This document shows, one piece after another, positions 43,313 through 46,423 of a DNA stretch of 60,399 bases (the stretch's first letter is position 1; each line of letters starts with the position of its first letter). The position numbers and the translations under genes were made by a program. The notes under the pieces are model-generated. The model ran no database searches. It saw nothing but the letters and a program-made list of their open reading frames with translations, and had not been told where the DNA came from. The stretch is from Bacteroidales bacterium. GTDB taxonomy: Bacteria > Bacteroidota > Bacteroidia > Bacteroidales > F082. Location: contig JAZKYG010000020.1 in the NCBI GenBank assembly GCA_045612025.1, positions 1 through 60,399 on the forward strand. The letters run 5' to 3'.

Positions 43313-44026
43313 CTACAAATCATTCCTTACTCCTAATTTATCAAAAGTAAATCCTCTTTCCACATAATATTCAAGGACTTTTGTAAGTGCTGGAATCATA
43401 TTGTTTACTGCTTTTTCGCTGTCGTGAAAGACGATGATACTTCCGTCGTCGGCATTTTTTATCACATTATTAAAACAATCCTCCTGACTTAAAGACTTAT
43501 CCCAATCGTAAGATATCACAGTCCAAGCCACTATTTTAAATTCTGGAATTCTAGAACTCTCGAACTTTAGAAGTTCAGATTTATCTTTAATTTCTAAACT
43601 TCTGAGGTTCTGAGATTTTGAATTTCTGAGCTTTTTAATCAATCTGATTTGTGATGATTTGATCCTTCCATGAGGCGGACGGAAAAGAGGCGATTGTATC
43701 AAAGCGTCGGCTTGTTCTACGGAATTTATGTAATCTTTGGTTTTTGTCTTCCATCCTCTTTCGTGATTGAAAGTATGATTTCCGACGGCATGACCTTCAT
43801 TCTTAATCAGTTCGAAAGTATCTTTATATTTATTAACATTATTGCCGATGCAGAAGAAAGTCGCTTTAGCGTTAAATTTCTTTAAGATTTCAAGAACCTG
43901 CGGAGTTATAGTTGGATGCGGACCGTCATCGAAAGTGAGGTAAAGTTTTTTCTCACCCTTAGGCATTTCCCAAAGAAATGAAGGATAGAACAGTCTTAAT
44001 ATTTTCGGAGTCGTGATGAGGCGCAT
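43313..44026 (-). CDS. Polysaccharide deacetylase (NodB/CE4 family) carrying an in-frame repeat insertion
   Basis: TFDDGP, HAVGNHTFNH and LFRPPHG motifs. Its ATG lies 2 nt after the stop of the upstream kinase gene. Confidence 0.88.
   Translation of the reverse strand: MRLITTPKILRLFYPSFLWEMPKGEKKLYLTFDDGPHPTITPQVLEILKKFNAKATFFCIGNNVNKYKDTFELIKNEGHAVGNHTFNHERGWKTKTKDYINSVEQADALIQSPLFRPPHGRIKSSQIRLIKKLRNSKSQNLRSLEIKDKSELLKFESSRIPEFKIVAWTVISYDWDKSLSQEDCFNNVIKNADDGSIIVFHDSEKAVNNMIPALTKVLEYYVERGFTFDKLGVRNDL
43538..43627 (-). repeat. Intergenic-type repeat (TTCTGAG/GAACTTTAG/TCTAGAAC families) embedded in frame in the NodB CDS
   Basis: The plus strand reads ...TTCTAGAACTCTCGAACTTTAGAAGTTCAG...TTCTGAGGTTCTGAGATTTTGAATTTCTGAG. 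It encodes RNSKSQNLRSLEIKDKSELLKFESSRIPEF, between the RPPHG motif and the VAW..DW motif. Confidence 0.85.
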
Positions 44027-44028
44027 AA

Positions 44029-44967
44029 TCAGTTCAATAAATTTAACCTATTTGTGATAATGTCTTTATATGCAATTTTCATTTCATCTGGTAAGAAAGA
44101 AATATCTATAAAGTCGAACCATTTATCTTTTACTTTCAAGAATTTATTAAAAATATTTCCAATAACTTTTTCTTCTAATTCCGACGCCCGCATTGAAATT
44201 TCAAAATCCGATTTTCTAATTTTACGCTTCTTTCCATTCAATGTAAGAGCAAGTTCCTCAATGTCTTCAGGCATAACCAAAGCCGTTGACAACATATCAT
44301 AAGCCGGTGTAAGATTATATAGATGATCGACTTTACTATACAAAGAAAAATTTTTCAGATGCATATCTGCATTACCTGTTATCCATGAAAAAACAACTTG
44401 TTCCCAATAGTTTACTAAATCCAATTTGGGAACAGATGAATATTTTTGTATGACTTTTGCAATTTGTTCATACGAGCCTTTGTACTTATGTTCCGTCAAA
44501 CGTTCTGTAAGCTGACACATATCTTCCATTGCCAATTTTTCACCATTTTCAGTACGATCTATACGTCGTGTTATATAACAAAGTTCACCATCTGAAAACC
44601 GAATCAAACTATGAGGAACAACTTGGATTTTCGCTATTTCAGCTAAATGCATAGTTAAATCCTCTAATTCAGGAAGATTTGCAAAACGTTCCGTCTGAGG
44701 TTTTAGAATATACCTTCCCCACAAACCAACAATTGTGAATCTCTCTGCCTCATTACGACCGCTTTTTTTTATATCCAAAGACAATTTTGCTTGTACGCCT
44801 GTTAATGTCGTTTGGCTACGCACAACCTGTCTTGCAAGTTCGGTAAGATTGTCTCGAGTATAAGGCAACTCTGGAGCTGTTGTTGCACCGAATATTTTTC
44901 TCGAACAAGAACTATGAAAATCTATCTCATTATCAGCAAGCTCTTTATAACAAAACAAACATTTCAT
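44029..44967 (-). CDS. HipA-family Ser/Thr kinase core (HipT-like toxin) with an N-terminal CxxC zinc-ribbon-like segment
   Basis: CLFCYKELADNEIDFHSSC, the Gly-rich loop TLTGVQAKLSL, the catalytic motif GNADMHLKNFS, and TPAYDMLS. Confidence 0.85.
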   Translation of the reverse strand: MKCLFCYKELADNEIDFHSSCSRKIFGATTAPELPYTRDNLTELARQVVRSQTTLTGVQAKLSLDIKKSGRNEAERFTIVGLWGRYILKPQTERFANLPELEDLTMHLAEIAKIQVVPHSLIRFSDGELCYITRRIDRTENGEKLAMEDMCQLTERLTEHKYKGSYEQIAKVIQKYSSVPKLDLVNYWEQVVFSWITGNADMHLKNFSLYSKVDHLYNLTPAYDMLSTALVMPEDIEELALTLNGKKRKIRKSDFEISMRASELEEKVIGNIFNKFLKVKDKWFDFIDISFLPDEMKIAYKDIITNRLNLLN

Positions 44968-44968
44968 A

Positions 44969-45298
44969 CTACTTCTCCTCATTATTTATAAGTTCAACAC
45001 CAACAGCACCAATACAATCTTTACAACATGCCACTAACAACGACATTCTATCACGAGCATCTATTTTCCAATTATTTTCAGCTATATCCAACAACCAGCC
45101 TTCTGGAATAAGTCCGTCAAAAAAGGGGAAAAGAACTTTTTCATTATACGGTTTTTCCGTCAATGGCAATGTTAAACTTATAGCTTCAGCTTTAGTTGAA
45201 TAAAGAAAATTCAAATCATACTGAAATGTATACCCATTCTCATCCTCGGTAAGAATTCCAGCTTTTTCACCTCGTAAAAAAACGGTAGCTTGTTTCAT
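44969..45298 (-). CDS. HipA N-terminal-subdomain-like protein (HipS-like)
   Basis: 109 aa, with VFLRGEKAGILTEDENGYTFQYD...PFFDGLIPEGW, which resembles the N-terminal subdomain of full-length HipA. Its stop lies 1 nt from the kinase ATG. Confidence 0.75.
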   Translation of the reverse strand: MKQATVFLRGEKAGILTEDENGYTFQYDLNFLYSTKAEAISLTLPLTEKPYNEKVLFPFFDGLIPEGWLLDIAENNWKIDARDRMSLLVACCKDCIGAVGVELINNEEK

Positions 45299-45513
45299 AA
45301 TTCAATATCTTTTTCAATCTTAACAACACCCACTTCACATCCGAATAAATTCAAAATCTGATTGACTTTATCTAAACGAAGAGTCTGTTTGCCTTGTTCA
45401 AGTTCTCTAACAAAACGAAGACCGACACCTGATTTCTCAGACAAGTCAATTTGCGTGAGATTATACTGCTTACGCATTATTTTTACATATTTTGATAAAC
45501 TGCTTTGTTCCAT
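45295..45513 (-). CDS. XRE-family helix-turn-helix regulator (HipB-like)
   Basis: MRKQYNLTQIDLSEKSGVGLRFVRELEQGKQTLRLDKVNQIL. It overlaps the next ORF by 4 nt. I chose ATG 45513, which lies downstream of a TATATTTG box. Confidence 0.8.
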   Translation of the reverse strand: MEQSSLSKYVKIMRKQYNLTQIDLSEKSGVGLRFVRELEQGKQTLRLDKVNQILNLFGCEVGVVKIEKDIEL

Positions 45514-45516
45514 AAT

Positions 45517-45532
45517 TATACCCTTTAGGGTG
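45517..45532. promoter_or_regulatory. Operator-like palindrome 1 (TATACCCTTTAGGGTG)
   Basis: ACCCT-N2-AGGGT inverted repeat between the -7 box and ATG 45513. Confidence 0.5.
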
Positions 45533-45540
45533 CAAATATA
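45533..45540 (-). promoter_or_regulatory. -7 box TATATTTG (minus strand) for the three-gene Hip-like operon
   Basis: It matches TAnnTTTG and lies 19 nt upstream of ATG 45513. Confidence 0.5.
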
Positions 45541-45560
45541 ATTAAAATATTTTATTTTAC

Positions 45561-45575
45561 ACCTTTTCGGGTATA
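45561..45575. promoter_or_regulatory. Operator-like half-site (ACCTTTTCGGGTATA)
   Basis: It contains the GGGTATA half-site shared with the two palindromes. Confidence 0.35.
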
Positions 45576-45598
45576 AAAACACAAGCAAAAGATAATAT

Positions 45599-45616
45599 TA
45601 TACCTTAAAGGGTATA
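45599..45616. promoter_or_regulatory. Operator-like palindrome 2 (TATACCTTAAAGGGTATA)
   Basis: TATACC-N6-GGTATA with perfect 6-bp arms. Confidence 0.5.
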
Positions 45617-45892
45617 ATCAACCAAAGACAAAAGACAAATGGTTAAAGTAGTGAAGTTTAAGTTTAGAGACTATTGTGATATTTTTTGTTAAAATTTTAT
45701 TGTAAATAACGAATGTTTTATATGAAAACAATCATACTATAGGTACAGATATGATTATAATAATTTAACAATCAATGTATTACCCCCCCGATTTTTATTA
45801 AAAAAACTCCATTAACACTTGTTTTTATAAAAAATAAATACAATATTTGTGGTGGAAAATTAATTAAAAGTATAACTTAAAAACTTACAGCC

Positions 45893-46312
45893 ATGAAAAG
45901 ATTATTAGTCATTTTATTTTTAGCATTCTCTTATATAGGAATCGCTCAAAACGATTATGTTATTGTTGACAAGCAAAATTCAGGTGAGACAAGCGAACTA
46001 CAAAGCACTCCAAAATTAGGCTACGACAAATTAGCGGCTGAATACGAAGCCACGAGCATGCAATTAGCAAAGACAAACTATTATCTAGACAAATATGCAC
46101 GTCAAGCATTGTCGGGTGATATTTTGATTATAGCTGGCAGTGTTTTTACAAGTATGGCTGCATTTTGCGGATCTGTTGACACAGCACTTTTATGCACAGT
46201 AGTAGGACTTGGAGCTGGCATCACAGGATATGTCATGAAACTTTCAGCGTACAATCACATACAATCCAACAGATTAAAATACGACGGATTCAAAGTGAGT
46301 TATAAGTTATAA
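45893..46312 (+). CDS. Hypothetical small secreted/membrane protein
   Basis: A signal peptide (MKRLLVILFLAFSYIGIAQ) and two Gly/Ala-rich hydrophobic helices near the C-terminus. Confidence 0.6.
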   Translation: MKRLLVILFLAFSYIGIAQNDYVIVDKQNSGETSELQSTPKLGYDKLAAEYEATSMQLAKTNYYLDKYARQALSGDILIIAGSVFTSMAAFCGSVDTALLCTVVGLGAGITGYVMKLSAYNHIQSNRLKYDGFKVSYKL

Positions 46313-46320
46313 CGGAAAAA

Positions 46321-46344
46321 GGCTGCTAATCAGCAGCCTTTTTT
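46321..46344. terminator. Bidirectional Rho-independent terminator
   Basis: GGCTGCTaatcAGCAGCC is flanked by AAAAA on one side and TTTTTT on the other. It can serve both the + strand gene and the - strand tRNA. Confidence 0.7.
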
Positions 46345-46351
46345 GTTTTTG

Positions 46352-46423
46352 TACCCCCACCGGGAATCGAACCCAGATTTAAAGTTTAGGAAACTTTCGT
46401 TCTATCCGTTGAACTATAGGGGC
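46352..46423 (-). tRNA. tRNA-Arg (anticodon CCU)
   Basis: I folded the reverse complement GCCCCTATAGTTCAACGGATAGAACGAAAGTTTCCTAAACTTTAAATCTGGGTTCGATTCCCGGTGGGGGTA by hand into a cloverleaf. The anticodon stem is AAAGT/ACTTT, the loop is TTCCTAA, the T-loop is TTCGATT, and no CCA is encoded. Confidence 0.85.

Follow-up and report, generated by a model that had tools for sequence, protein, structure and literature searches.

Three closely packed genes on the minus strand of a Bacteroidales contig raise the question of which branch of the HipA kinase family they represent, and of what such a system is doing among housekeeping genes. With their upstream DNA they lie at about 44,029-45,616 in a 60,399-nucleotide (nt) stretch of DNA, referred to here as the window (positions 1-60,399 of contig JAZKYG010000020.1, assembly GCA_045612025.1, from an uncultured gut Bacteroidales bacterium). 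An earlier reading of the sequence, the original prediction, had described them as a split-HipA module of the kind found in Escherichia coli O127, with a helix-turn-helix (HTH) protein (HipB), a small HipA-N-like protein (HipS) and a kinase (HipT). Weighing all of the evidence below, we put the probability at roughly 90% that this chromosomal locus is accessory and encodes a tripartite type II toxin-antitoxin module, a member of the HipBST family that belongs to the Legionella-type subclade.

Sequence, profile and fold comparisons all agree on a tripartite module of the HipBST type. In profile searches, HipT matched HipA_C with an E-value of 1.4e-46 covering amino acids (aa) 54-282, HipS matched Couple_hipA (7e-27) and TIGR03071 (3.5e-31), and HipB matched HTH_3 (1.5e-9) as well as the NCBIfam couple_hipB model of the Y4mF family antitoxins, over its cut-off (1.5e-22). 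The profile check suggested along with the original prediction (HipA_C, HipA_N/Couple_hipA and an HTH_XRE-type profile) therefore returned strong matches for all three proteins. When compared with proteins of solved structure, HipT was closest to the kinase of Legionella pneumophila, HipT(Lp) (6e-51), followed by HipT of E. coli O127, HipT(Ec) (6e-16), and by HipA (4e-8). HipS was closest to HipS(Lp) (9e-16), followed by HI_0666 (6e-14), HipS(Ec) (4e-11) and residues 5-102 of HipA (1e-6), while HipB had HipB(Lp) in PDB entry 8ezt as its sole match (2.9e-5). A profile built from 90 HipT relatives likewise aligned end to end with HipT(Lp) at 4e-95, versus 2e-42 for the E. coli O127 kinase.

Predicted structures point the same way. 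The AlphaFold2 model of HipT, built on the 90 relatives, has a mean predicted local distance difference test (pLDDT) score of 95.1, with only residues 54-56 of the Gly-rich loop falling below 50, which is consistent with a mobile loop in the modeled kinase. In Foldseek searches, this model gave template modeling (TM) scores of 0.90 to 7wcf (HipT(Lp)-AMPPNP), 0.87 to 7ab4 (E. coli HipT) and about 0.7 to HipA. The HipS model is of moderate confidence (pLDDT 66) and comes from a shallow alignment of database homologues (77-94% identity); its only significant fold matches were HipS(Lp) (TM 0.71-0.76), HipS(Ec), HI_0666 and N-subdomain 1 of HipA (TMq 0.70), with TM scores overall of 0.69-0.76. The structural likeness of the 109-aa protein to the HipA N-subdomain, which the original prediction had proposed, was thus found in the predicted fold as well as in the sequence. 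Judged by these comparisons, HipT is an intact HipA-core Ser/Thr kinase, for which kinase activity is predicted, and HipS is, by sequence, a detached HipA N-subdomain 1.

The arrangement of the three genes (Table 1) is as first described. All three are tightly coupled minus-strand open reading frames (ORFs), and their coordinates, the 4-nt overlap of hipB and hipS (within ATGA) and the 1-nt gap between hipS and hipT were all reproduced: the hipS stop codon TAG occupies 44971..44969 and is followed by one base and then by the hipT ATG at 44967. An alternative in-frame hipT ATG at 44982, used by some gene callers, would give a protein of 317 aa, but we take 44967 as the start because most relatives begin 2-7 residues ahead of the first Cys. 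A longer version of hipB, beginning at a TTG (45588, 97 aa), was rejected since it would cross the operator-like sites described below and homologues align from the ATG at 45513. In a canonical HipBA system, N-subdomain 1 and the kinase form a single HipA; here they are two ORFs with a stop codon between them, and this separation is kept in relatives.

Conservation among relatives extends to the whole operon. Kinase homologues number at least 8000 in the database, and the kinase matches 5513 clusters formed at 50% identity (E up to 1e-3). When a single genome per species was scanned, at least 589 relatives were found, of which the best 80 were taken as loci; these come mostly from Bacteroidota, with a few from Methanimicrococcus, Chlorobium, Ignavibacteriaceae and a Caenarcaniphilales metagenome-assembled genome (MAG). 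Every one of the best 80 loci with enough upstream DNA keeps the order hipB-hipS-hipT, and in 72 related loci the gene upstream of hipS encodes a protein 49-88% identical to the window HipB. The three genes are a conserved, translationally coupled operon. Full hipB-hipS-hipT modules, 59-61% identical to that of the window, also occur in gut methanogens (L043, L045 and L058; Methanimicrococcus / Methanosarcinales), which suggests transfer between Bacteroidota and archaea of a shared habitat. The presence of Legionella-type HipBST in Bacteroidales is not new, homologues of HipBST(Lp) being widespread in the Fibrobacterota-Chlorobiota-Bacteroidota group (Lin et al. 2023, PMC10653801), and the window module is a typical intact example.

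Taking E. coli O127 HipBST as the model for this locus holds insofar as both are of the same tripartite kind, but by all three proteins the closest characterized system is HipBST of L. pneumophila (Lpg2368-Lpg2369-Lpg2370; PDB 7vkb, 7vkc, 7wcf, 8ezr, 8ezs and 8ezt), which is the best match in both sequence and fold. The two modules share gene order, overlapping genes and similar protein sizes (HipB 72 aa, HipS 102 versus 109 aa here, HipT 312 aa), and both have three 18-nt operator or operator-like sites with 6-nt inverted arms upstream of hipB. They differ in the gaps between these sites (53 bp in Legionella versus 23 bp here, or 41 bp start to start), in the Gly-rich loop (S-V-Q in HipT(Lp) versus T-L-T) and in an N-terminal Cys/His element, of which HipT(Lp) has only the first ligand whereas all four are present here. 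HipT(Lp) is also a Dot/Icm-translocated effector, a role that has no counterpart in Bacteroidales.

The E. coli O127:H6 system (PDB 7ab3, 7ab4 and 7ab5) is built in the same tripartite way, HipS being the antitoxin and HipB the repressor, and it shares with the window module the HipT mini-domain and the Glu63/Trp65 pair of HipS (E66/W68 here). It is nevertheless more distant: in fold alignment its HipT is only 22-24% identical to that of the window, its HipB is longer and carries an N-terminal helix, and of the four Cys/His ligands its mini-domain is missing three. Its HipT targets TrpS, which cannot be assumed for the window kinase. With E. coli K-12 HipBA the module has in common the kinase core and its catalytic motifs, the correspondence of HipS to N-subdomain 1 of HipA, and an HTH protein, which in K-12 acts as a repressor on multiple palindromic operators. 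However, K-12 HipA is a single chain in which a short linker takes the place of a mini-domain, as opposed to the separate HipS and HipT of the window, and K-12 HipB is the antitoxin by means of a C-terminal Trp. The K-12 operators, with the consensus TATCC-N8-GGATA, also differ from the palindromes upstream of hipB in the window. The window HipB ends in ...KIEKDIEL and is unlikely to be the antitoxin because it lacks this Trp.

The sequence motifs quoted in the original prediction were recovered in both proteins (PFFDGLIPEGW in HipS; T54-L55-T56-G-V-Q, G198-NADMHLKN and A222-YD in HipT). In HipT, residues D201, H203, K205, N206 and D224 are 98-100% conserved in the alignment of 90 relatives and align with the catalytic motifs of HipT(Lp) and HipT(Ec). 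Position T54 is equivalent to S54 in HipT(Lp) and S57 in HipT(Ec), and T56 to Q56 and S59, respectively, placing Thr at both known autophosphorylation positions of the HipT loop. Pointed out earlier as a peculiarity of this copy, the loop Thr is a real difference from E. coli O127 HipT but also a published variant that is common in relatives: (S/T)-aliphatic-T Gly-rich loops are an already described HipT group (PMC10627512), and 64 of 80 related loci have a TLT or TVT loop. In HipS, the segment FPFFDGLIPEGW is invariant in 72 relatives, PEGW included; it holds E66 and W68, whose aligned counterparts in E. coli HipS, E63/W65, reach into the active site and are wedged into the pocket of the loop (PMC10627512).

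If the module works like those of E. coli O127 and Legionella, HipT in its free form would phosphorylate an essential cellular protein, probably one in the translation apparatus, and arrest growth. HipS would bind the N-lobe of HipT, where Glu66 and Trp68 would keep the Gly-rich loop ejected and so block ATP binding, and autophosphorylation at Thr54 and/or Thr56 may modulate the kinase. Some observations weigh against carrying the Legionella precedent or this mechanism over in full. HipS(Lp) has Ile65/Met66 where the window HipS has Gly67/Trp68, and to judge from these residues inhibition may in its details follow the mode of E. coli and not that of Legionella. Across the wider family, only 49 of the 90 relatives have Ser or Thr at the first loop position, which is Ala, Val or Gly in about 40%, so control by autophosphorylation is not universal in the clade. 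In addition, neither TrpS nor GltX rescues the growth arrest caused by HipT(Lp) (PMC10653801), and for this reason the expectation that the target is an aminoacyl-tRNA synthetase is weak.

Upstream of hipB, three 18-nt palindromes of the form TATACC-N6-GGTATA (O1 to O3 in Table 1) are probably HipB operators, a candidate role based on their recurrence and on the Legionella precedent. At up to two mismatches, the palindrome matches four times in the 60-kb window (1.2 expected), and three of these matches fall within the 100 bp upstream of hipB. Of 72 related loci, 62 have it upstream of hipB too, usually in arrays of two to five copies, with a phasing of about 40-41 bp in bacterial loci and about 30/61 bp in archaeal ones; the methanogen modules mentioned above share the palindrome at a phasing of about 30 and 61 bp. 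In HipBA systems the inverted-repeat arms are 5 nt long, unlike those of the window motif, while the three operators bound by HipB in Legionella are 18 nt long, lie at even distances with gaps of 53 bp and have 6-nt inverted arms (both from PMC10653801, Lin et al.).

A promoter element may lie within the same array. The Bacteroidetes -7 promoter consensus is TAnnTTTG, and a match to it overlaps the edge of O1 (Table 1); in 44 of 73 related loci a match lies within 120 nt upstream of hipB, for the most part between -17 and -46. A scan for sigma-70 promoters was uninformative (14 sites versus 14.9 expected), Bacteroidetes using another consensus. As in the characterized systems, a HipB dimer, either alone or carrying HipS-HipT, would bind the three palindromes overlapping the -7 element and repress the operon.

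The Cys-rich N-terminus of HipT had also been singled out as a peculiarity of this copy. It is real and absent from E. coli HipT, but rather than being peculiar it is the norm in the clade. Among the 90 full-length relatives, which are 35-82% identical, C3 is present in 90/90 and C6, H18 and C21 in 89/90 each, a level equal to that of the catalytic residues. The pattern C-x2-C-(8-24)-H-x2-C was found in 112 of 118 cluster representatives covering the N-terminal region, and all 79 HipTs from the genome loci (79/79) have the CCHC ligands. Six of the 118 are exceptions. In four of them the first Cys remains and the other three ligands have been lost as a set (C...T/S...S/N...G/A), a fifth has a deletion of the region and the sixth is apparently truncated; partial loss was seen in no sequence. 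The mini-domains of the two HipTs with solved structures, HipT(Lp), which reads MKHCPITYEKISDQENYSQRGL, and of E. coli O127 HipT, which reads MANCRILLTPLNERDEQRGYSTQGL, are degenerate in the same sense, with only the first of the four ligands left. On a Bacteroides thetaiotaomicron plasmid (NZ_CP103120.1; L116:1944-3484), a distant HTH / HipA-N / HipA module (31% identity) lies beside a site-specific integrase, and its HipT mini-domain is of the degenerate type too, the Cys/His ligands being missing as they are in E. coli and Legionella.

In the HipT model, residues 1-30 have pLDDT values of 97-98, with a beta bridge between residues 2 and 9 around C-x2-C and a helix at 19-26 carrying H-x2-C. 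A beta hairpin with C-x2-C, combined with H-x2-C where a helix begins, makes up the classic zinc-knuckle or treble-clef arrangement. Going by conservation and predicted secondary structure, the mini-domain probably binds one zinc ion in most family members. Alternatively, the motif may be kept for disulfide or redox chemistry, as an iron-sulfur ligand or for protein-protein contact, and this we consider improbable. In its favor, the first Cys is retained even in the variants without the other three ligands and therefore has a role independent of the four-ligand site. Opposed to it, besides the fit of the secondary structure to the classic layout, are the constancy of the four ligands while the spacer varies from 8 to 24 residues, the all-or-none loss of three of them, and the host itself, which is anaerobic with a reducing cytoplasm where structural disulfides are unlikely. 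A Pfam search with the N-terminal 53 residues of HipT, at E up to 10, returned no family. For zinc or cysteine in HipT/HipA, a limited search, which is no proof that the element is undescribed, found nothing relevant in the HipBST/HipA literature, and the E. coli HipT mini-domain (aa 1-41) has been termed 'of unknown significance' in published work.

If the element does bind zinc, the CCHC ligands would chelate one ion between a knuckle and a helix N-terminus in a treble-clef-like manner, rigidifying the stretch of about 50 residues at the HipT N-terminus that precedes the Gly-rich loop. HipT is resolved over 261-272 residues in the Legionella HipS-HipT complexes versus 316-319 in the free kinase, and the N-terminal minidomain is unresolved in the complex yet visible in the isolated toxin (Bærentsen et al.). 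A bolder proposal is that the 'mini-domain' is ancestrally a C2HC zinc knuckle that serves as a regulatory switch, and not as a passive brace, in most HipBST and fused systems; we offer this as a speculation with the odds well against it.

The fused systems are proteins of about 440 aa among relatives 37-44% identical to HipT, with the HipS-like domain and the kinase in one chain and with the same CxxC...HxxC element. Their order is Couple_hipA domain (with PFFDGLIPEGWLL), linker, CxxC...HxxC element and HipA_C, so that the Cys/His element sits exactly at the junction of the HipS-like part and the kinase. Three of them (P0159, P0165 and P0196) show 41-44% identity across the full length of HipT. 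Since split and fused forms exist side by side, splitting or fusion happened within the clade. These kinases might correspond to the group named 'HipBA_Bu' by Lin et al. Separately, three proteins of 624-632 aa (P0248, P0266 and P0268) combine a CCHC mini-domain and kinase with a C-terminal extension of about 300 aa that has no Pfam match and contains a conserved ...ECKRP... segment recalling the PD-(D/E)xK nuclease motif, and another protein (P0270, 574 aa) has a different extension.

The accessory status of the module rests on its presence and absence among relatives, not on base composition. Its neighbors are housekeeping genes, with panC and panD on one side and genes for a polysaccharide deacetylase, a Big_5 lipoprotein, an adenine deaminase, a peroxidase, a patatin and a peptidase S9 on the other. 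A metagenome scan was made for the neighboring deacetylase, and presence and absence were read from relatives such as L089, L090 and the metagenomic contig L092. In L092 (panC 96%, deacetylase 75%), the 3' end of the tRNA-Arg gene is followed by 3 nt and then by the deacetylase ATG, and the entire segment 44027..46350 is absent. L089 and L090 retain the upstream DNA together with the distal and middle palindromes but have lost hipB, hipS and hipT, and what remains runs directly up to the deacetylase ATG; these orphan operators show a secondary loss of hipBST. The module had been described as AT-richer than its surroundings, and its GC content is indeed 33.9% versus 38.7% for the window, but this is marginal (9th percentile of same-size windows, with flanking genes at 36-37%), and an AT-rich island was rejected as evidence of accessory status because of that percentile and the similar values of the flanking housekeeping genes. 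Similarly, the distance of about 1.4 kb to the tRNA-Arg gene is correct when counted from the hipT start (1.38 kb) but is 0.84 kb from the hipB start.

This setting bears on why the module persists. It could be a selfish remnant of an integrative element once at tRNA-Arg, an addiction module that persists by post-segregational killing and not through a benefit to the host. The 2.3-kb segment starts exactly at the tRNA-Arg 3' end, and at this same position at least two different tyrosine-integrase elements occur in conspecific strains, which have a HipT 100% identical to that of the window; the slightly low GC content of the module would also suit such an origin. Partial tRNA copies lie beside the 139-aa gene of the segment in these strains, of 37 nt (L001:8595-8631), 14 nt (L002:2552-2565; also in L006) and 12 nt (L003:166-177). 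However, hipBST lies just outside the integrase elements, the segment has neither an integrase nor a duplicated tRNA 3' end at its far border, no repeat of its own was found, and the integration site is unoccupied in the window. Moreover, L089 and L090 lost the three genes cleanly and survived, so that loss is possible and any addiction is at most weak. We regard addiction as an unlikely explanation for the persistence of this HipBST module.

Another reading is that the selected role is anti-phage abortive infection, in which infection would deplete a labile HipS or HipB, for instance through a shut-off of host transcription, and the freed HipT would stop translation before the phage cycle ends. 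A HipA-family kinase toxin, that of the two-gene, toxin-antitoxin-like system HipAD / DS-6 (DefensePredictor, PMC13092281), is validated in phage defense, and its kinase activity is needed for protection; its partner carries DUF3037/DUF1829 and is unrelated to HipS or HipB, and the comparison of its kinase with the window HipT was made at the family level. PADLOC also returned partial matches to its candidate system PDC-M03A/B (E 3.5e-4 for HipT aa 154-236; E 3e-4 for HipS aa 13-61), though these are weak and far under the family level. The module is accessory and sits beside a tRNA integration hot spot, and 17 plasmid records and 24 IMG/VR contigs carry relatives, while its neighborhood is of the housekeeping type with no defense island, and we found no demonstration of phage defense by HipBST in the literature. 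No homologue was found among the 50,697 phage genomes of INPHARED, an absence that speaks neither for nor against defense. Although a defensive role is plausible in general, for the window module it is a tentative reading, which we do not favor.

Table 1. Features of the hipBST locus and its tRNA-proximal side, in window coordinates
Feature	Position	Strand	Description	Basis
hipT	44029..44967	-	312-aa HipA-core Ser/Thr kinase, presumed toxin	HipA_C
HipT catalytic motif	44350..44376	-	G198-N-A-D201-M-H203-L-K205-N206; Mg-binding D224 in A222-Y-D	alignment
HipT Gly-rich loop	44785..44808	-	T54-L55-T56-G-V-Q-A-K61	alignments
HipT N-terminal mini-domain	44818..44967	-	mini-domain with Cys/His element	CCHC conservation, model
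hipS	44969..45298	-	109-aa homologue of HipA N-subdomain 1, presumed antitoxin	Couple_hipA, TIGR03071
hipB	45295..45513	-	72-aa Xre-type HTH regulator	ATG start; HTH_3 and couple_hipB matches
O1	45517..45534		palindrome, 2 mismatches; 41 bp from O2, ends 3 nt ahead of hipB ATG	motif scan
-7-like element	45533..45540	-	TATATTTG, match to TAnnTTTG, overlaps O1 edge	general -7 consensus
O2	45558..45575		palindrome, 1 mismatch; 41 bp from O3	motif scan
O3	45599..45616		TATACCTTAAAGGGTATA, 0 mismatches to TATACC-N6-GGTATA	recurs in related loci
2.3-kb segment	44027..46350		139-aa gene, promoter/operators and hipBST	absent from L092
tRNA-Arg(CCT)	46351..46423	-	integration hot spot in conspecific strains	context

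Several further features of the locus were observed. The deacetylase ATG lies 2 nt past the hipT stop codon (window 44026-44031) with no terminator between them, and 3 nt past tRNA-Arg in L092 (L092:1397-1403). Transcription of the deacetylase appears to depend on upstream DNA, and in the window it may be co-repressed by HipB. In L089:1-185 and L090:1-177 (compare window 45517-45720), the orphan promoter/operator arrays are fused to the deacetylase start codon and may now drive this gene. On the tRNA side of hipB, the 139-aa ORF (45893-46312, plus strand) starts with a signal-peptide-like segment and is hydrophobic in its C-terminal half, its one family match being a sub-threshold tRNA_anti-like one; it is followed by a terminator-like hairpin with a 13-bp stem (46315-46344), which is common to the tRNA side. 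The integrase element of L001 carries an SMC_N/AAA_15/AAA_23-type ATPase and a Peptidase_S24/HTH pair as cargo. The window protein is also present in the NCBI MAG GCA_045612345.1.

For the HipBST family, the TATACC-N6-GGTATA arrays with their phasing of about 41 bp, found across Bacteroidota and in Chlorobium, Ignavibacteriaceae, the Caenarcaniphilales MAG and Methanimicrococcus, constitute a putative family-wide signature of the HipB regulon. The natural knock-outs, in which either hipBST has been deleted leaving orphan operators or the whole segment is absent, could be used to probe the role of the module in gut Bacteroidales. The conservation of the CCHC ligands provides a concrete and cheaply testable hypothesis, and it warns against generalizing from the solved HipT structures. 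Should the mini-domain prove to be a zinc-dependent switch, the mechanistic work to date, in E. coli O127 and Legionella, would have used rare derivatives that lack it.

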